This document shows, piece after piece, positions 3,801 through 24,007 of a stretch of 39,519 nt of DNA. The notes below the pieces were generated by a model that worked only from the letters and a program-made list of their open reading frames with translations, did no database searches and had not been told where the DNA came from. The stretch is taken from the UHGV virus genome UHGV-0148166, one strand, 5' to 3'. Positions within the stretch are counted from its first letter, which is position 1; every line of letters begins with the position of its first letter. The position numbers were made by a program, and so were the translations under genes. Source of the stretch: a virus.

Positions 3801-4281
3801 TTTTAAAAACTCGCTGGTATGATTTAGATGATGGGGATGATGGCATTTCAGTTGATAGAGTTGACTGGAATGGTTGTTCCGAAGATATGAAAAATTTGTT
3901 GATTAGGGAGTTTAGAATGGGATATCAAGCAGCTAAGCCATTTACTGTAACAGATGATAAGTTCGTATGTATTCAAAACGGTCGCGCTAAGTTAACGAAT
4001 GCTGATTGGTTCACAGATAAGAAGGTTCTTCTGTGGTATATCATTAGTCTTCCTATATCATCGTTCGTATTTTACTTTTTTATAAAAAATCCAATGGACA
4101 GAATAGGAGATTGGATTCTTTTAACCATACTTGTTAATATTTTTACAGCAGCAGTATTATCAGGAATATGGCGTATGTTCATTGAAATGCCATGGCGTTT
4201 ACGCAGACAACAAAAGATTTTTGATGAAAAGAAATATACTCAAAATTTAAATAACTTTATCACTGAATGCAGGAAATTAAA

Positions 4282-4285
<4 letters not shown>
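3797..4285 (+). CDS. 2-TM membrane protein, paralog 3 with N-terminal soluble domain (C-terminal tail NFITECRKLK)
   Basis: Hydrophobic helices in C-terminal half; AGGAAA RBS; ATGA overlap with next gene. Confidence 0.6.
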
Positions 4286-5254
<969 letters not shown>

Positions 5255-6749: not shown

Positions 6750-7112
6750 ATGAAAGCATATCAAATTCTTGAAGGCACACATAAAGGTACTATTTATTTT
6801 GAAGATGGTATTCAAGCACGAATTATTGTTTCTAAAACCTTTAAAGAGGACTCTTTTGTAGACCCAGAAATTTTCTACGGTTTGCGTGCCCGTGAAATTG
6901 AAATTGAGCCACAACCTACAGTTAAAATTGAAGGTGGTCAACACCTGAACGTTAACGTTCTGCGTCGTGAAACTCTGGAAGATGCAGTTAAGCATCCGGA
7001 AAAATATCCGCAATTGACTATCCGTGTATCCGGTTATGCAGTTCGCTTTAACTCTCTGACTCCGGAACAGCAGCGCGACGTTATCGCTCGTACCTTTACC
7101 GAGAGTTTGTAA
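6750..7112 (+). CDS. Autonomous glycyl-radical cofactor, GrcA/YfiD-like (T4 Y06I-like)
   Basis: C-terminal 70 aa match the glycyl-radical domain as recalled for E. coli GrcA ([60 protein letters not shown]). Confidence 0.9.
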
Positions 7113-7333
7113 TGGCAAAGATAATTATTGAAGGTTCTGAAGATGTGCTAAATGCTTTCGCCGAGTGGTTTAGTAATTCAGGTGAACAACAATTTAATGA
7201 AGCGTGGAATATGGGTGATATTGATGGAATTTATCCTACGACAGAAATTTCTGTTCAGGGATATGGCATTCATGAACCTATTCGTTTAGTTGAATACGAT
7301 TTATGTACTGGCGAGGAAGTCAAATATGATTGA
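7112..7333 (+). CDS. Hypothetical small acidic protein (73 aa)
   Basis: ORF with ATG overlapping upstream stop. Confidence 0.5.
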   Translation: MAKIIIEGSEDVLNAFAEWFSNSGEQQFNEAWNMGDIDGIYPTTEISVQGYGIHEPIRLVEYDLCTGEEVKYD

Positions 7334-7592
7334 AGATATTAAGGGTTATAAACCACATACTGAAGAGAAAATCGGTAAAGTGAATGCTATCAAAGACGCT
7401 GAAGTTCGTTTAGGACTTATCTTTGATGCTTTATATGATGAATTCTGGGAAGCGTGGGATGATTGCGAAGACTTTGAACTCGCGAAGAATTATGCTGAAA
7501 GCCTCGATCAGTTAGCTATTGCTAAAACGAAACTCAAAGAAGCCAGTATGTGGGCTTGTCGTGCAGTGTTCCAACCAGAGGAAAAATACTAA
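7326..7592 (+). CDS. Hypothetical small acidic protein (88 aa)
   Basis: GAGGAAG RBS before ATG 7326. Confidence 0.5.
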
Positions 7593-7870
7593 TGGCTCAA
7601 TTAAGCGCAGGGTTTGGTTATGAGTATTATACTGCCCCTCGTCGTGTATCTGTTGCTCATAAGAAAATTCAAAGTCTTGATGACTTCCAGGAAGTAGTCC
7701 GTAACGCTTTCCAGGACTATGCACGTTATCTTAAAGAAGATTCGCAGGACTGTCTCGAAGAAGATGAAATTGCTTACTATACGCAGCGTCTTGAACAGCT
7801 CAAAAATCTACATGAGGTTCGTGCAGAAGTTTCAAAGTCTATGAATAAATTGATTAGATTTAAAGAATAA
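7592..7870 (+). CDS. Hypothetical small protein (92 aa)
   Basis: GAGGAAAAA RBS; TAATG overlap with upstream gene. Confidence 0.5.
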
Positions 7871-7873
7871 CTG

Positions 7874-7902
7874 TTTACTTTTCCTCTTGACTGTGGTATA
7901 AT
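7874..7902 (+). promoter_or_regulatory. T4-type early promoter upstream of regB
   Basis: -35 TTTACT, 17-bp spacer, TGG-TATAAT. Confidence 0.6.
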
Positions 7903-7929
7903 TTTTCTATCAGTTAAGAGGAGAACAAC

Positions 7930-8391
7930 ATGACTATCAATACAGAAGTTTTTATCCGTCGAAATAAGCTTCGTCGTCACTTTGAGTCGGAGTTTCGTCA
8001 AATTAACAATGAGATTCGTGAGGCATCAAAAGCAGCAGGAGTCTCATCGTTTCATCTAAAATATTCTCAGCATCTTCTTGATCGTGCAATTCAACGGGAG
8101 ATTGATGAGACATATGTTTTTGAATTATTCCACAAAATAAAAGACCATGTTTTAGAAGTTAATGAATTCCTGAGTATGCCTCCGCGTCCTGACATTGATG
8201 AGGATTTTATTGATGGGGTTGAATACCGTCCTGGACGTTTAGAAATCACAGATGGAAATCTTTGGCTTGGATTTACAGTTTGTAAACCTAATGCGAAGTT
8301 CAAAGACCCGTCGCTTCAATGCAGGATGGCAATTATCAATAGTCGTCGTTTACCAGGAAAGGCTTCTAAAGCAGTAATTAAAACTCAATGA
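7930..8391 (+). CDS. regB: RegB site-specific endoribonuclease
   Basis: 153 aa, length and sequence match T4 RegB as recalled; AAGAGGAG RBS. Confidence 0.85.
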   Translation: MTINTEVFIRRNKLRRHFESEFRQINNEIREASKAAGVSSFHLKYSQHLLDRAIQREIDETYVFELFHKIKDHVLEVNEFLSMPPRPDIDEDFIDGVEYRPGRLEITDGNLWLGFTVCKPNAKFKDPSLQCRMAIINSRRLPGKASKAVIKTQ

Positions 8392-8398
8392 GGTAAGC

Positions 8399-8944
8399 AT
8401 GAGAAAAGCACTACTCGCTGGTCTATTGGCCATTTCAATGATGGCACATAGCTCCGAGCATACTTTCAGTAATGTCCAACTCGATAACATGCGTTACGCG
8501 TATCAATTCGGGGAACAATTTTCTAAGGATGGAAAATATAAAACACACAAAAACATCCATAAGAGCGGATTGGGTCATATAATGGCTGCTATTTTGTGGC
8601 AAGAAAGCTCTGCCGGAGTTAATTTAAAATCTAAACCAAAGCATCATGCCTATGGAATGTTCCAAAATTATTTGCCTACTATGCGAGCGAGAGTCAAGGA
8701 ACTTGGTTATAATATGACCGATGCTGAAATAAAAAGAATGTTGAATAAACGATCCAATTCAGCTTCCTGGGCGTACATTGAACTTTCTTATTGGTTAAAT
8801 ATACATAAGGGCGATATAAGAAAAGCAATATCCTCTTATAATTCGGGATGGAATGTTAAAGCAGGTTCTAAATATGCTTCTGAAGTCCTAGAAAAGGCTA
8901 ATTACCTTAAAAATAATAAACTTTTGGAAATAGTAAATGACTAA
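8399..8944 (+). CDS. Secreted lytic-transglycosylase-like protein (SLT-domain motifs)
   Basis: N-terminal signal peptide; motifs WQESS, AYGMFQ, YNSG resembling the SLT catalytic region. Confidence 0.6.
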   Translation: MRKALLAGLLAISMMAHSSEHTFSNVQLDNMRYAYQFGEQFSKDGKYKTHKNIHKSGLGHIMAAILWQESSAGVNLKSKPKHHAYGMFQNYLPTMRARVKELGYNMTDAEIKRMLNKRSNSASWAYIELSYWLNIHKGDIRKAISSYNSGWNVKAGSKYASEVLEKANYLKNNKLLEIVND

Positions 8945-17860: not shown

Positions 17861-18388
17861 ATGAACGCTAAAGATATTTTCAACCTGGTAAATTACAACG
17901 ATGGTAAATTTAAATCAGAAGCACAAAGCAAGTTCTTTAATGACATCTCAATCGGAGGTGAAATCACGGTTGATGGAGGACAAATTTACAAATCCCGTTG
18001 GAATTGGATCGTTATTATTGATGAGATTGGTATTGTAGAAATTTACAAGAATACGAATAAAAATCGTACATTACACTGGTCTCGTGATACTAACGAACAG
18101 TACAAAAAGGATAAAGCATCTAAATTATCTCGTGTAACTCAAGAAGATATTGAGTTCATCAAGAAAGATATTTTGATGTATGATAACTTAATTGCTGAAG
18201 AGCAAGCTGTTATTGATAAATTTGACGAGATTAAAGCTTCTCGTGAAATTCCTGATTTTATGAAAGAATCAGTAAATGAACGATACACTCTCATTTCAGA
18301 GCGTATTGAAACTTACAAAAAGCAAAGAGCTGAACGCCAAAATACTCTTCGGAAGTTTGAAGAACGGTTAAAGACGGTACTCGCATAA
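17861..18388 (+). CDS. Hypothetical protein (175 aa) with charged helical C-terminal half
   Basis: ACGGAGGAA RBS before ATG 17861. Confidence 0.6.
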   Translation: MNAKDIFNLVNYNDGKFKSEAQSKFFNDISIGGEITVDGGQIYKSRWNWIVIIDEIGIVEIYKNTNKNRTLHWSRDTNEQYKKDKASKLSRVTQEDIEFIKKDILMYDNLIAEEQAVIDKFDEIKASREIPDFMKESVNERYTLISERIETYKKQRAERQNTLRKFEERLKTVLA

Positions 18389-18858: not shown

Positions 18859-19746
18859 ATGTCAGTAGTAATTAATAATGTCAATGCAGTAATTAAATCT
18901 TTAGTTAATAAAAAATTGAATGAATGGACTGTACTTCGTCGCGGAGAGCCAGATAAATTTTTTCATAGATTTAACCCAACTTTGGATTTGAATGTTATTG
19001 ACAGAGATGTTCATGCAGAAATTTTAGATAAGTTTAAAGTTGATATTGGATTTGGATTAGATAAACATTTGCAGCGAACAAACGGGTCTGGAATGGGTTT
19101 ATCTAATCGCATCATGAAAGCCCTTAATAAAATTGGAGCGTTGTCTCGTATTAATGCGAGTGAAATCCTTCGCAATTATAATAAAGGATATGACCTTTAT
19201 GGTCGACTAATGCCGAAATTGTCATTCGATCAAATGATTGCGGATTTATGGGAAAATCAACGACGATTATTAGCATTAGGTGCTCGATTAGCTAAAGGTC
19301 TAGATAAACAAATGATTTTTAAAACTAATAATACAGAAGACCTTAAATGCTTTAAATTTAGTATTCGCGGAGATGATTATTACATCAGAGCTCGCTCTAC
19401 TGATTATGTTAATATGGGGCATCATCTCTGTTTAGCTTTTGAAGTTTTAAAAGAAGCCGGAACACTAGAATATGTGTCTGGTGCTAAATGCCCGATTGGT
19501 TCAAATTGTATTTTAATTTATCGCCCGGATGAATCCAGTTCAACTAAATTGCCTACAAAACCTGTACCAGTTCGTAGTAACGAAAAACATTCTGAACAAA
19601 TTGATTATTTTAATAAACAGATTGAAGAGCTGAATATTTCTATTCAACAATATGATGATGAAATTTTCAGACTATCTGGATTGAGTAGTAAAGCTAAATC
19701 TGAGCGTGAAAAGTTAATTAAAATTGTTGATTTACTTAAATCTTAA
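18859..19746 (+). CDS. Hypothetical protein with C-terminal coiled coil, family member P1 (295 aa)
   Basis: GAGGAAAATATG; last about 45 aa heptad-like. Confidence 0.6.
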   Translation: MSVVINNVNAVIKSLVNKKLNEWTVLRRGEPDKFFHRFNPTLDLNVIDRDVHAEILDKFKVDIGFGLDKHLQRTNGSGMGLSNRIMKALNKIGALSRINASEILRNYNKGYDLYGRLMPKLSFDQMIADLWENQRRLLALGARLAKGLDKQMIFKTNNTEDLKCFKFSIRGDDYYIRARSTDYVNMGHHLCLAFEVLKEAGTLEYVSGAKCPIGSNCILIYRPDESSSTKLPTKPVPVRSNEKHSEQIDYFNKQIEELNISIQQYDDEIFRLSGLSSKAKSEREKLIKIVDLLKS

Positions 19747-19754
19747 GGAACACC

Positions 19755-20774
19755 ATGAAAACTCGTTCTCAAATTGAAGATATGGTTCGTAATGCCAGTT
19801 ATACTCGTGATGTTATGACATTTTTGTGCCAAAATAATTTAGACCCTGATAGAGTTAATAGTTCCATTCACTTTAAGTATATGAATAGCAGTGAATGGCT
19901 GCGACATTTTGATAAAGCTGGATATATTACGCAAATGACTGCTCGCGAACAGCTCACCGATTTCTGTAAAACTATTGATTATAAAAATCCTCTATTTGTT
20001 CAAGGCGTTGGTCAGAGTAAGGTTGATTTATCAACAGGATTTTTTAATCCAAATCATTACCGTCTTGAATGGAGATTTATTGCTCTATTCCGTAAACAAT
20101 TAAAGCAAATTTTGTCGACGGCTAGTCGATTAAAAGGTTCTGACATTAACTTAAAGAACCTGAAATTTGATGGTTATACTCTTCAGATGGAAGTAAGACC
20201 ATTAAAAGAAAATAATAGAACTGCGCGAATTAGCTTTAAACCTAATACAAAAAATTCTCTTTCAATTTGTGAATGCCTTAAATCGCAGTTGACAGAAGCA
20301 TTTAAGTATATGGATGTTGTTGCCGCTGTTCATTCTAAGATTTTACCTCGTTTTGAGCGAAATTGGGAACATACAACAACATATGAACTTGATATGGTCG
20401 TTTCATTTAAATACGATTTTTTGAGAGAGGACGAAGTCCCGCAAGAGAAAAAGCAAGAAGTGCAAGATAACTTAAATTTATCTAATTGCTCATCAAACGA
20501 TCCTAAATTTTGGATGTATAGCTCAGGTAATAAAGATGCATGGAAATTCAATAAAGTGAATTTTCTTCCTATTGAAAATCCGAGTCTTAAACCTGTTGAA
20601 AAATGGCACGCGGATGCGATTGAGAAGTCTATCAAGGCAGTAGATGATGAACTCGTTAAAGCAACTAATGAAGTGCTAGAAGCTGAAAAGATGCTAGAAA
20701 AAGCTCAAGAAAAAGTCAAAAATCTCACGAAGCAACGTTCTAAATTGAACAATGCACTAAATGCACTGAACTAG
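19755..20774 (+). CDS. Hypothetical protein with C-terminal coiled coil, family member P2 (339 aa)
   Basis: AAGGAACACC RBS; internal motif FRKQLKQILSTASRL; coiled-coil tail. Confidence 0.6.
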   Translation: MKTRSQIEDMVRNASYTRDVMTFLCQNNLDPDRVNSSIHFKYMNSSEWLRHFDKAGYITQMTAREQLTDFCKTIDYKNPLFVQGVGQSKVDLSTGFFNPNHYRLEWRFIALFRKQLKQILSTASRLKGSDINLKNLKFDGYTLQMEVRPLKENNRTARISFKPNTKNSLSICECLKSQLTEAFKYMDVVAAVHSKILPRFERNWEHTTTYELDMVVSFKYDFLREDEVPQEKKQEVQDNLNLSNCSSNDPKFWMYSSGNKDAWKFNKVNFLPIENPSLKPVEKWHADAIEKSIKAVDDELVKATNEVLEAEKMLEKAQEKVKNLTKQRSKLNNALNALN

Positions 20775-20803
20775 TTTACTTTGCCACAAGGATGTGGTAT
20801 AAT
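20775..20803 (+). promoter_or_regulatory. T4-type early promoter
   Basis: -35 TTTACT, 17-bp spacer, TGG-TATAAT. Confidence 0.6.
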
Positions 20804-20831
20804 GTTCTTACTTTCTACTGAGGAGATTAAT

Positions 20832-21833
20832 ATGACTCGTAACGAATATATCAAATCATTCAATAGCGTTATTGATGATAAAGTTAAACCTATGTCTAGT
20901 CAGAATAGTGTTCTTTCTATTATCAATCAGTGGCTCAACAATACTGATGCAAGTATTGTTTCTTCCAGCAAATTTATTCATGAAGTTCATAAAATTTCTA
21001 GTCGTGTAGATAAAGATGATATTAAGGAAACCTTTAAAGGTTCTCGTCTTCTTTCATATTTAGTTAATCAGGATATTCTTGGTAAATTTGGGAAAGAAAT
21101 TAAACGAACTAAAGATGTAGTAGGATATAATTGGTTCGGTGATGTTAATTCTTATCATCTTAATATTAAAGAAGACCCTGAGAATATTTTTACTCGTCGT
21201 TGGATTAGTAATTTCAGACTTTTCAAAAAGCAAATTCTAAAATCAGCTTCTAAATTATGTTATGGCGATTATCGTCAAATTCATCCTTTGGCTTCTGATA
21301 TGATTATCATAAAAGAATATGAACTTGATAAAAATAAAGCAGCTATTTTTGTGAATTATGAATTTTTTACACCAGAAGCTAATCAAAAGAACATTAATAA
21401 ATTTTTCTCAATTGCTAGTGATACAACTCGTCAGTTAGAGACTGCATTACTTTGTATGGAAACGGTAGAAAATATTCATACTTATCCTTTTAAGAATATA
21501 TGCGGTTGGGAAGGATATAAAATTGTAGTTAGTCTTCGTGAAGTAAAGTGTGCGTACTCACCGACTGATAAAGAAATTTACCAACAAAAATGTGATGAAA
21601 TTGTGAATACTCCTAAAGAAGAAACTACCCTTGAGGAACTAATGGATAATCTTGATGATTCACCTGAACCGGTAGAAATTCGTCCAGAAGTTATTGCATT
21701 AGAAAAAGCTTATAAAGAAGTTCTAGAAATTTCTAATAAAGCACAGAAAGAATATGAGCAGGCTAAAAGGATTTGGGAAGAATCTGTTAATCGCCTGGAT
21801 CGTCTTGAACAAGCTTTACAGTTAATTAAGTAA
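20832..21833 (+). CDS. Hypothetical protein with C-terminal coiled coil, family member P3 (333 aa)
   Basis: GAGGAG RBS; internal motif FKKQILKSASKL; coiled-coil tail. Confidence 0.6.
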   Translation: MTRNEYIKSFNSVIDDKVKPMSSQNSVLSIINQWLNNTDASIVSSSKFIHEVHKISSRVDKDDIKETFKGSRLLSYLVNQDILGKFGKEIKRTKDVVGYNWFGDVNSYHLNIKEDPENIFTRRWISNFRLFKKQILKSASKLCYGDYRQIHPLASDMIIIKEYELDKNKAAIFVNYEFFTPEANQKNINKFFSIASDTTRQLETALLCMETVENIHTYPFKNICGWEGYKIVVSLREVKCAYSPTDKEIYQQKCDEIVNTPKEETTLEELMDNLDDSPEPVEIRPEVIALEKAYKEVLEISNKAQKEYEQAKRIWEESVNRLDRLEQALQLIK

Positions 21834-21887
21834 AATTTAAAGCCAAGGATGGCTCGGAGTATAAACCATTAACCAAGTGAGAAGAAC

Positions 21888-22817
21888 ATGAAAACTCGTA
21901 AACATTATATTGATTATTTTGACAGTCTTATTACTAAACATCGTGATTATCAGATAGGACACAGAGCAGTAATCAATAATATTCTTCGTGATTTCCTTCA
22001 GTATGTTGGCCAGGAAAATCATATCTGTAAAGATACTCAGAACGCTTATTCTCATTCGTTAGGCAATTTACTTGAATGGTTTAAACGTTCTCGTATGTTA
22101 TCTTCTACTGTAGCTAGCGATAACATTAAAAACTTTATGAAGCCGAGATTCATTAAAACTGCGACATCTATAACCGATTTGGTTGAATTTACTATTGTTA
22201 ACGATGTTAAAAAGACCCATTTGGCTGATTGGTTATCTACCATTCCCGAAACTAAATTTGCTGATAAATTCGCTTGTCAATTCAATGACCAAGTGAATAT
22301 GCTTTTTAAGCATGCTCGTAAACTATTTACCGCGGGCGATGACCGTACAAATACAGTTCATGTTAAGGATTGGGTTATTGCTGATGAAGTAACACACAAG
22401 CCAGGTGGTTCATCAGTATTAATTAATATCCAGGTTCCTTATTATTACTCACGTAATCTCGGCACCATGACAGCTAGAGAAATTAATAAGCACAACAAAA
22501 TTATTCGTTCGTTGTCTTATAAACTCTGCACGATGGTGGAGATGATGGACGTAGTGGAAATGTATGATGAAACCGAAGATAATGGTTCAATGTTATACAG
22601 TTCACGCATTCTAATTAAACTGAAGAACCCTAATACGTATAAGCCAGTTGTAAAAGAACCTAAAGTAGAAAAGGTTGATAACTTGAGCGAAGAACGTGAA
22701 TATCTCAATGCTCGTTTGATTGAAGTTGAAGCCCAAATTGAAGAACACACCAAATTGTTAAAAGCTCTTAATGCAAAAGCAAATGGTTTACGTAATGCTA
22801 TTGAGGTATTGAAATGA
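21888..22817 (+). CDS. Hypothetical protein with C-terminal coiled coil, family member P4 (309 aa)
   Basis: GAGAAGAAC RBS; coiled-coil tail. Confidence 0.6.
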   Translation: MKTRKHYIDYFDSLITKHRDYQIGHRAVINNILRDFLQYVGQENHICKDTQNAYSHSLGNLLEWFKRSRMLSSTVASDNIKNFMKPRFIKTATSITDLVEFTIVNDVKKTHLADWLSTIPETKFADKFACQFNDQVNMLFKHARKLFTAGDDRTNTVHVKDWVIADEVTHKPGGSSVLINIQVPYYYSRNLGTMTAREINKHNKIIRSLSYKLCTMVEMMDVVEMYDETEDNGSMLYSSRILIKLKNPNTYKPVVKEPKVEKVDNLSEEREYLNARLIEVEAQIEEHTKLLKALNAKANGLRNAIEVLK

Positions 22818-23128
22818 AAAAGCGTCTATTAGAAGACATTGCAGCTTCAAGTAATTCTAGTCTAATTAAAATTATTATGGCTGGTGAAGAAGACAATTTG
22901 GAAATGCGTGGAAAGATTTATGGTTGTGATGATTATAGCCCTCCTGTTAATTGGGATTCTGTAATGGTCATGGTTGAACGTCGTGAAAGGGCTTCTAAAA
23001 ACGTTCCTAATTGCCCTGAATGTGGAACTGAACAGGTTCAATTGATTCATTGGCAGACTAGTATTCTTCGTTATAAATGTCGCCATTGTAAACACCGATT
23101 TGACCGAGAAGAAAATGACAAAGCGTAA
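22814..23128 (+). CDS. Zinc-ribbon protein (104 aa)
   Basis: CPECG...CRHCKH two CxxC pairs. Confidence 0.55.
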
Positions 23129-23357
23129 AGAATATATGGAGACTGCTGAAAAGGCAGTCCGTGAATTAGCAATAGCTTATTATAATGAACATGGTAAATT
23201 TCCTGATAGATACAGCGTGCTTAAATCTGCTTTAACTCGTTCATATAAAAATATGCTATCAGAAGTAAGTGATATTATATACAAACATAAAGAACAAACG
23301 GGCCAAAGTCTTGATTACGACGAGACTTTTAAACAAGTACTAGGAATTAAGGAATAA
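23115..23357 (+). CDS. Hypothetical small protein (80 aa)
   Basis: ATG after GAGAAGAAA; track start is TTG. Confidence 0.5.
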
Positions 23358-23622: not shown

Positions 23623-23834
23623 TGCTCGAAGGAACTGACTATATTCATGATTACCGCGGAAGCGCGGTATATGTAGGTGATGAAGTTGCAGTTTATTATG
23701 GGTATGGAACTTTGATGACAGCCAAGGTTATTCAAATTAAAAATAATCGTGCTAAACTCGAAGTTTATTATTCTAATGGTGAAAAGTCTATTTCTAAGTG
23801 GAAATACGGTGATTGCATGGTCAAACTGGGGTAA
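23619..23834 (+). CDS. Hypothetical small protein (71 aa)
   Basis: ATGA overlap with nrdC. Confidence 0.5.
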   Translation: MMLEGTDYIHDYRGSAVYVGDEVAVYYGYGTLMTAKVIQIKNNRAKLEVYYSNGEKSISKWKYGDCMVKLG

Positions 23835-23836
23835 AT

Positions 23837-24007
23837 ATGATATACGATATTAGTGCAGCAAGAGCTCCATCAATGGTTACTATTCCTGTTGAAGAATTAG
23901 ATCGTCTTCATAAAATTGAAGAACTTCTTTGGGAAATTGAATGTGACCTGCCATCAGGATTAGAATCCTGGGTTGATTATGAAGAACTTAATAAGCTTCG
24001 GGGTTAA
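23837..24007 (+). CDS. Hypothetical small acidic protein (56 aa)
   Basis: In-frame ATG within track ORF 23813-24007. Confidence 0.4.
   Translation: MIYDISAARAPSMVTIPVEELDRLHKIEELLWEIECDLPSGLESWVDYEELNKLRG

Follow-up and report, generated by a model that had tools for sequence, protein, structure and literature searches.

When four consecutive phage genes encode proteins of similar size, the question arises whether they are copies of one ancestral gene and which function such copies would serve. Positions 18859-22817 of a 39,519-nt stretch of the virus genome UHGV-0148166 raise this question. The whole stretch was studied and is hereafter termed the window; the array, composed of four adjacent open reading frames (ORFs), lies on its + strand. 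A first-pass annotation, made from the letters alone, had considered these ORFs a paralog-like family with variable heads and a constant coiled-coil tail, of the kind expected for host-target inhibitors. The results presented here show that the array consists of ancient tandem duplicates of one early, non-essential gene that occurs in a large part of the Straboviridae, and that one of the duplicates, nrdC.5, is the orthologue of a T4 gene that counteracts the immune protein Dsr1.

The array corresponds to T4 nrdC.6, nrdC.5, nrdC.4 and nrdC.3

A megablast search with segment 18400-23400 matched 684 phage records, nearly all of them from Tequatrovirus, the closest match being Shigella phage SHFML-11 (99.2%). 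Judged from these matches, the window is that of a Tequatrovirus, a T4-like phage, and it is oriented as the reverse complement of the T4 GenBank record. Place on the T4 map and similarity identify the four ORFs as orthologues of T4 nrdC.6, nrdC.5, nrdC.4 and nrdC.3, all annotated as hypothetical in T4. The coordinates and lengths given in the first-pass annotation hold, as do the ATG starts, each with a ribosome-binding site of the GAGG type, and the MKTR start common to the second and fourth proteins (nrdC.5 and nrdC.3). The array proteins are soluble. Those of nrdC.6, nrdC.5 and nrdC.3 are basic, with isoelectric points (pI) around 9 (9.0-9.2) and basic N-terminal or core segments, and that of nrdC.4 is acidic (pI 5.9). 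Each gene is intact in hundreds of genomes (554-654 records).

The four genes are ancient paralogs

Direct BLASTP comparison among the four proteins gave a single significant pair, nrdC.4 and nrdC.3 (E 2e-6 over 226 aa, in the N-terminal two thirds), for which hhalign reported a probability of 98%. When family alignments were used, hhalign aligned nrdC.5 with nrdC.4 at 35% (E 4e-4, 132 colinear columns). The direct link between nrdC.6 and nrdC.5 was weak (10.6%), and the family-only comparison of nrdC.6 with the other three gave about 1%, intermediates being required. The syntenic region was retrieved from other Straboviridae genera, and two single-copy proteins were found to bridge the families. 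A 338-aa protein of Enterobacter phage ZX14 matches the nrdC.6 family over core and tail (hidden Markov model (HMM) E 1.2e-7; hhalign 93%), and a 324-aa protein of Klebsiella phage KpV477 matches nrdC.4 and nrdC.3 (HMM E 5e-6 over 150 columns; hhalign 51%).

The similarity does not depend on the tails. The last 60 residues were cut from every protein and HMMs were iterated on 334 local ORFs. The tail-less profile of nrdC.4 and nrdC.3 recovered the KpV477 protein, then the ZX14 protein together with the nrdC.5 family, and finally one nrdC.6 orthologue, and the tail-less nrdC.6 core recovered the ZX14 protein through its motif-helix segment. Relatedness beyond the coiled coil was the point on which the paralog claim of the first-pass annotation could have failed, and this iteration joins all four proteins. 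Merged profiles gave colinear alignments in the globular part, of nrdC.4, nrdC.3 and KpV477 with nrdC.5 (hhalign 87.3%, E 3.8e-6, 147 columns) and of nrdC.6 and ZX14 with nrdC.4, nrdC.3 and KpV477 (79.5%, E 1.5e-5, 99 columns). The multiple alignment is likewise colinear, with pairwise identities of 12-22% among the paralogs. A Foldseek search with the AlphaFold2 (AF2) model of nrdC.6 returned full-length matches at probability 1.0 and 12-15% identity to uncharacterized proteins of 300-375 aa from T4-like phages of Enterobacter, Klebsiella, Acinetobacter, Pectobacterium, Yersinia and Erwinia. Between the array copies, a search for DNA-level repeats or gene conversion yielded only short chance matches, and the duplications are therefore old. 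Sequence profiles thus firmly identify nrdC.3, nrdC.4 and nrdC.5 as ancient paralogs; that nrdC.6 is a further one is supported by good but indirect evidence.

Several other candidates were rejected. The product of nrdC.8 (window 17861-18388) likewise ends in an amphipathic helix; as a possible fifth member it gave no HMM or hhalign link, and it is far more conserved than the array (most Tequatrovirus records reach 99% identity or more, those of Mosigvirus 84% and those of Dhakavirus 68%). Neither the proteins at the syntenic position in KP15, POP12 and kvi nor the 256-268 aa neighbors in ZX14 and Acj61 bear a detectable relationship to the array. A whole-library HMM search of 1.84 billion representatives with the profile of nrdC.4 and nrdC.3 found 10 proteins, none of them bacterial and one a spurious long coiled-coil protein, and an IMG/VR related-locus search with nrdC.5 found five close relatives only.

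A common architecture and a central motif

AF2 models were made for nrdC.5 and nrdC.6. That of nrdC.6 reached a predicted local distance difference test score (pLDDT) of 78 and a predicted template modeling score (pTM) of 0.66, and the order of the structural elements is the same in it and in the low-confidence nrdC.5 model. The models suggest a layout common to all four proteins: a helical N-region, a motif helix, a hairpin, a helix, a second hairpin, a disordered linker and a terminal helix of 45-55 aa. In both models the chain runs as a single unbroken helix up to the C-terminus. The matches that the nrdC.5 model gave in BFVD were discarded as untrustworthy, the model being too poor for a fold search; Erwinia phage Cronus, Serratia phage PS2 and Klebsiella phage KPV15 recur in the fold-match lists of both proteins.

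The central motif that had been noticed in the second and third proteins (FRKQLKQILSTASRL / FKKQILKSASKL) is real, and by alignment it is present in all four, as DLWENQRRLLALGARLAKGLD in nrdC.6, WRFIALFRKQLKQILSTASRLKGSD in nrdC.5, WISNFRLFKKQILKSASKLCYGD in nrdC.4 and QFNDQVNMLFKHARKLFTAGD in nrdC.3. Three further elements align in the four paralogs: an upstream helix, F[KR].SR.LS...A...L..F, a second core helix, L..A...MDVV, and a KPV/PV element directly before the tail. The idea of unrelated N-terminal heads has to be abandoned, since the upstream helix aligns in all four and the globular part is homologous throughout. The coordinates of these features are given in Table 1.

Table 1. Genes, predicted protein elements and promoter of the array, in window coordinates.
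Feature	Positions	Strand	Details
nrdC.6 orthologue	18859..19746	+	295 aa; PHROG 2257; Pfam PF26899 on homologues; AF2 model
nrdC.6 central motif helix	19225..19305	+	aa 123-149, ..NQRRLLALGARLAKGLD; alignment
nrdC.6 C-terminal helix	19594..19743	+	aa 246-295; AF2 helix 245-294; pN/pS 0.02
nrdC.5 orthologue	19755..20774	+	339 aa, 39.7 kDa; Pfam DUF7235 (PF23882), E 8.9e-124
nrdC.5 central motif helix	20061..20144	+	aa 103-130; alignment; AF2 helix 107-126
nrdC.5 C-terminal heptad helix	20604..20771	+	aa 284-339; AF2 helix 283-338, pLDDT 82-91
T4-type early promoter before nrdC.4	20774..20803	+	GTTTAC-N18-TGGTATAAT; promoter scan
nrdC.4 orthologue	20832..21833	+	333 aa; PHROG 1435; Pfam PF26897 on homologues
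nrdC.4 central motif helix	21186..21269	+	aa 119-146; alignment
nrdC.4 C-terminal helix	21684..21830	+	aa 285-333; from sequence; pN/pS 0.01; irregular heptad
nrdC.3 orthologue	21888..22817	+	309 aa; PHROG 1435; allele class unlike T4, T2, T6
nrdC.3 central motif helix	22254..22340	+	aa 123-151; alignment
nrdC.3 C-terminal heptad helix	22683..22814	+	aa 266-309; heptad score

T4 nrdC.5 counteracts Dsr1, and the other array genes are candidate immune inhibitors

nrdC.3 to nrdC.6 were already known as ORFs of T4, and one of them, nrdC.5, has a published phenotype. A T4 clone with a deletion including nrdC.5 does not plate on ECOR17 or on MG1655 carrying the ECOR17 dsr1 gene, and plating on MG1655 with dsr1 is restored by plasmid-borne nrdC.5 (PMC9391042). 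T4 nrdC.5 is thus an early, non-essential gene that determines host range (Srikant, Guegler & Laub, 2022; PMC9391042), and the window ORF is its orthologue, with about 90% protein identity and a full-length DUF7235 match. The published study treats nrdC.5 as a single uncharacterized gene; here the three genes flanking it are joined to it, by profile and fold comparison only. Dsr1 is a SIR2 NADase (NAD, nicotinamide adenine dinucleotide) with a bilobed tetratricopeptide repeat (TPR) sensor, a homologue of the Avs7 sensor, that is reported to recognize phage major capsid proteins (2026 preprint, PMC12803255).

Because they are paralogs of a validated anti-Dsr1 gene, nrdC.6, nrdC.4 and nrdC.3 are good candidates for immune inhibitors, specific and cheap to test. 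Even in T4, which among lytic phages has been studied most, no role is known for three of the four early proteins of about 33-40 kDa. The proposal is directly testable, though unsurprising in kind. The inhibitor role that had been put forward for the whole family therefore stands for nrdC.5, on account of its T4 orthologue; to the other three we extend it by inference.

The promoter context is an early one. The promoter-like element seen before nrdC.4 in the first-pass annotation (20775-20803) is a good T4 early match, GTTTAC-N18-TATAAT with TGG before the -10 hexamer, and the window holds eight early-promoter sites of this type against 0.54 expected. A second proposed promoter, "TATAAAcc" at about 21856-21860, could not be upheld: it is absent from the promoter scan, on reading has neither a -35 hexamer nor a MotA box, and does not correspond to the late TATAAATA. 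Also between nrdC.4 and nrdC.3, at 21838-21857, lies a short GC-rich hairpin, AGCCAAGGATGGCT, without a T-run on the + strand, which the scan flagged only as a minus-strand terminator-like site.

We favor, at a probability of roughly 55%, the interpretation that the four proteins are stoichiometric inhibitors of host immune proteins, the globular part binding the target and the terminal helix oligomerizing. The proteins would be made from early promoters and accumulate before late triggers such as the capsid protein. The globular part would then bind a host sensor or effector directly, Dsr1 in the case of nrdC.5 and other targets in the case of its paralogs. It would be the specificity surface, because it is there that nrdC.3 alleles and paralogs differ. 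The terminal helix would form homo-oligomers, conferring avidity or matching an oligomeric target, and its paralog-specific sequence would prevent mixing among the four proteins.

A working model for the action of nrdC.5 is provided by the phage protein DSAD1, which also neutralizes a SIR2-type NAD-depleting immune protein. DSAD1 reportedly binds that protein, DSR2, directly. No similarity of the array proteins to DSAD1 was found in sequence or fold. DSAD1 belongs to SPbeta-like Bacillus phages and is described as repressing DSR2 (PMC10981675, PMC10973363).

Several points weigh against this interpretation. nrdC.5 alone has a phenotype, none having been found for nrdC.3, nrdC.4 or nrdC.6 in the searchable literature. 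The link of nrdC.6 to the family rests on intermediates and on modest E-values in a local database of 334 proteins, and for nrdC.5 AF2 gave a model of low quality (pLDDT 49). Gene-wide positive selection is not seen in the array genes, omega (the dN/dS ratio) being below 0.4, and the saturated dS of nrdC.3 (about 1.1) points to the import of alleles that are old, and not to fast change in recent times. The frequent frameshifts and deletions described below could mean decay of some copies. Lastly, the basic globular parts of nrdC.6, nrdC.5 and nrdC.3, together with an XerD-like segment in nrdC.3, point weakly to nucleic-acid binding. Three alternatives were considered, which in decreasing order of weight are that nrdC.5 is the only inhibitor, that the terminal helix itself docks to the target, and that the proteins bind nucleic acid.

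Copy number, alleles and selection

Copy number varies among related phages, from one to four by genus, and alleles vary too. Tequatrovirus carries nrdC.6, nrdC.5, nrdC.4 and nrdC.3. Dhakavirus and Gaprivervirus have nrdC.6, nrdC.4 and a nrdC.5 at 22-27% identity, and are without nrdC.3; Mosigvirus has nrdC.6 and nrdC.3, with nrdC.5 present or absent; and Kanagawavirus and Jiaodavirus have a single copy. Acinetobacter phage Acj61 has a tandem pair, of 304 and 330 aa and each with a helical tail, neither of which hhalign detects; the length of the first is that of the Acj61 Foldseek match to the nrdC.6 model. No member occupies the array position in Slopekvirus, Krischvirus or Pectobacterium phage POP12. 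The grouping of the four genes into one family with a defined architecture, its fold-level spread across Straboviridae genera and its allele and copy-number polymorphism appear not to have been described in the literature searched. A natural series for mapping the part of the protein that determines target specificity is provided by the four paralogs, the two nrdC.3 alleles described below and the single-copy relatives from phages of Klebsiella, Enterobacter and Acinetobacter.

The array genes are dispensable, and lesions in them recur, which together with the variation in copy number and alleles has the character of an accessory locus in an arms race. Phage ACG-C40 has lost nrdC.5 through nrdC.3 except for a 71-aa stub and the last 72 nrdC.3 codons. 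P0056 is a natural in-frame fusion in which nrdC.5 residues ~145-272 are followed by nrdC.3 from "MLFKHARKLF" to its end, with nrdC.4 deleted; the two parts meet where they share a short FN..VN similarity, and the positions so joined are not equivalent in the two paralogs. In phage G8, nrdC.4 is split. In the T4 reference (NC_000866, 10067-10894), nrdC.6 has 275 aa, ends in "...NKQIEELIFLFNNMMMKFSDYLD" and is frameshifted with respect to the 295-aa form of the window, T6, VR7, IME08 and RB69-like phages, so that the laboratory T4 sequence is without the nrdC.6 C-terminal helix. RB69 nrdC.5 (3973-4875, 300 aa) has a non-helical, Lys/Thr-rich end in place of a coiled-coil tail, and from its sequence the C-terminus looks frameshifted.

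nrdC.3 occurs in two allele classes with 69% nucleotide identity and a dS of about 1.1, in a region otherwise about 95% identical; the flanking genes are 93-99% identical. T4, T2 and T6 carry the class other than that of the window. The classes are alike in the first ~70 residues and in the tail, and strongly different from about residue 71 through the linker. The neighboring zinc-ribbon gene nrdC.2 shares this behavior: over 21888-23128, nrdC.3 and nrdC.2 each have at least two deeply diverged allele classes in Tequatrovirus (59-80% aa identity), the genes on either side being 93-100% identical, and sequence comparison marks the segment as locally mosaic or hypervariable. Over whole genes, omega lies at 0.13-0.38 in nrdC.5, nrdC.4 and nrdC.3 and at 0-0.09 in nrdC, endonuclease VII and nrdC.8. 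The values of the three array genes are 5-10 times those of neighboring housekeeping genes, which from these sequences indicates relaxed or partly diversifying constraint.

These data bear on the possibility that nrdC.5 is the sole immune inhibitor, its three paralogs having unrelated host-takeover roles or being slowly decaying duplicates. Such an explanation fits the single reported phenotype, the recurrent lesions (T4 nrdC.6 tail, RB69 nrdC.5 tail, G8 nrdC.4, ACG-C40, the P0056 fusion) and the low identity among the paralogs. It fits poorly with the hundreds of records in which each paralog is intact, with the clear purifying selection (omega 0.02-0.38, and 0.01-0.02 in tails) and with the early promoter that nrdC.4 has of its own. 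We consider it the most serious competitor, albeit a rather doubtful one.

If the four proteins are indeed stoichiometric inhibitors, each paralog might be tuned to a different clade of capsid-recognizing TPR-sensor proteins (Dsr1, Avs7 and relatives with other effectors), the array constituting a "library" of sensor blockers. This extension is speculative and probably does not hold as it stands. If it did, the immune repertoire of the hosts would be mirrored in how many copies and which alleles a phage carries (the two nrdC.3 classes, for instance), as a phage counterpart of host sensor diversification.

Constraint in the C-terminal helices

Each ORF had been claimed to end in a heptad-patterned helix. 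The heptad test was a crude score of hydrophobicity at positions a and d, compared with 200 shuffles. The pattern is clear in nrdC.5 (score 0.88, reached by 0 of 200 shuffles) and nrdC.3 (0.78, reached by one), borderline in nrdC.6 (0.04 against the shuffles), and by this crude score not significant in nrdC.4, the tail core of which is irregular. A position-specific conservation of the tails between paralogs was also looked for and rejected, since the C-terminal register scores no better than shifts of ±7 or ±14 residues. Common to the paralog tails are their architecture and a loose C-terminal pattern, L..A[ILM]..L[KN].

Within orthologue groups the situation is different. Among nrdC.6 orthologues, tail identity is 0.68 versus 0.40 for the N-region. 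The tails of nrdC.6 and nrdC.4 are the most constrained segment of their proteins (pN/pS, the ratio of nonsynonymous to synonymous polymorphism, 0.02 and 0.01), values of 0.12-0.27 being found in N-regions and of 0.36-0.81 in linkers; in nrdC.5 constraint is even along the length. The notion of a constant tail with variable heads thus applies within the orthologue groups of nrdC.6, nrdC.4 and nrdC.3 only, and breaks down between paralogs, the tails of which, in the profile register test, differ as much as the rest.

Divergence of the tails between paralogs, combined with a conservation above that of any other part among the orthologues of nrdC.6 and of nrdC.4, is what a specificity element would show. 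It could accordingly be thought that the terminal helix is itself the target-binding element, docking for example in a TPR sensor such as the bilobed one by which Dsr1 recognizes capsid protein (PMC12803255), with the globular part as a scaffold. The heptad a/d pattern is, however, typical of coiled coils, and between the nrdC.3 allele classes it is the core that varies and the tail that is preserved, which points to the core as the variable interface; docking by the tail is therefore improbable.

Database families, misannotation and a weak XerD-like match

The databases hold three separate uncharacterized families for these proteins (PF23882, PF26897 and PF26899), and only nrdC.4 and nrdC.3 have been merged, in PHROG 1435. 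nrdC.5 matches the DUF7235 model (PF23882) over its full length with 413 bits, the gathering cut-off being 30, and the model does not match nrdC.6, nrdC.4 or nrdC.3, which are not members at the Pfam level. Full-length PHROG profile matches were obtained for nrdC.4 (E 1.3e-166) and nrdC.3 (E 9.2e-116) with PHROG 1435 and for nrdC.6 with PHROG 2257 (E 1e-152). PF26897 is precomputed on homologues of nrdC.4 and nrdC.3, and PF26899 is present on all 105 nrdC.6 homologues. The PHROGs holding array proteins are 1435, 2257 and 2351. Each of the four array proteins belongs over its full length to one of these PHROG or Pfam families, and the superfamily link found here is unrecorded in the libraries that were queried. 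The result suggests that the three uncharacterized families be merged.

It also corrects a widespread misannotation. Many GenBank records label nrdC.1 to nrdC.11 as "thioredoxin" or "Phage DNA synthesis". No thioredoxin match was found in the array proteins with Pfam or NCBIfam, and the label is for this reason an apparent carry-over from the positional nrdC.x names; labels of this type on nrdC.x genes are propagated misannotations. T6 records give nrdC.x genes unrelated structural names, and a 2026 paper calls nrdC.8 a nucleotide reductase. Searches of the array proteins for a solved structure, a known domain or a bacterial homologue found none, and PADLOC and NCBIfam scans gave nothing meaningful.

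The top PDB sequence match of nrdC.3 was XerD, below significance (phmmer E 0.33). Residues 34-88 of nrdC.3 (window 21987-22151) align without gaps over 55 residues with residues 7-61 of the XerD core-binding domain ("..T.NAY...L....EW.."). NCBIfam Xer models matched nrdC.3 at E 1e-3 to 4e-2, far below cut-off, and hhalign against XerD gave 36%, also below significance, in a test chosen after the match had been seen. A Pfam scan found no Phage_int_SAM match in the array proteins. That the array encodes nucleic-acid-binding early factors, with a SAM-like helical N-domain and a dimerizing tail, which would relieve Dsr1 indirectly (for example through trigger expression or timing), would suit this segment and the basic character of nrdC.6, nrdC.5 and nrdC.3, and is very unlikely considering these sub-threshold scores, the missing Phage_int_SAM match and the acidic nrdC.4.

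The anti-defense neighborhood of the array

The array is flanked upstream by mobD, nrdC.9, nrdC.8 and the membrane protein gene nrdC.7, and downstream by nrdC.2, nrdC.1, nrdC, pin and endonuclease VII. Two of the genes located 0.3-1.2 kb downstream are nrdC.1 and the counterpart of T6 Gp49.2. nrdC.1 is reported to inhibit Septu (2025 preprint, 10.1101/2025.11.20.689424) and T6 Gp49.2 to inhibit the OLD defense nuclease (PMC13096335), and the array therefore sits in an anti-defense neighborhood. Like the array, NrdC.1, Gp49.2 and, in the anti-toxin-antitoxin island of T-even phages, TifA, Dmd and AdfA are encoded by small early accessory genes in clusters between conserved ones, which are variable and are lost or amplified under selection. 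They differ from it in being small, unrelated, single-copy proteins, whereas the array is a four-member family of proteins of about 33-40 kDa with a multi-part architecture.

The window nrdC.1 (23115-23357) is the T4 nrdC.1 orthologue and is 99-100% conserved among the Tequatrovirus compared, with an omega of 0 in four of six comparisons, in contrast to the adjacent array. The ORF at 23813-24007 encodes 64 aa and is 89% identical to T6 gp080, which by gene order is T6 Gp49.2; the window is without T4-type 49.2 and 49.3. In ACG-C40, an extra ModB-like ADP-ribosyltransferase gene and a DUF4031 gene lie between nrdC.11 and nrdC.10 (388-1407). In KP15 (Slopekvirus, 7100-8533) and POP12 (7141-8562), a NadV-type nicotinamide/nicotinate phosphoribosyltransferase gene, of NAD salvage, stands just upstream of nrdC in place of nrdC.3-6, and may be another way, at the corresponding locus, of countering NAD-depleting immunity.

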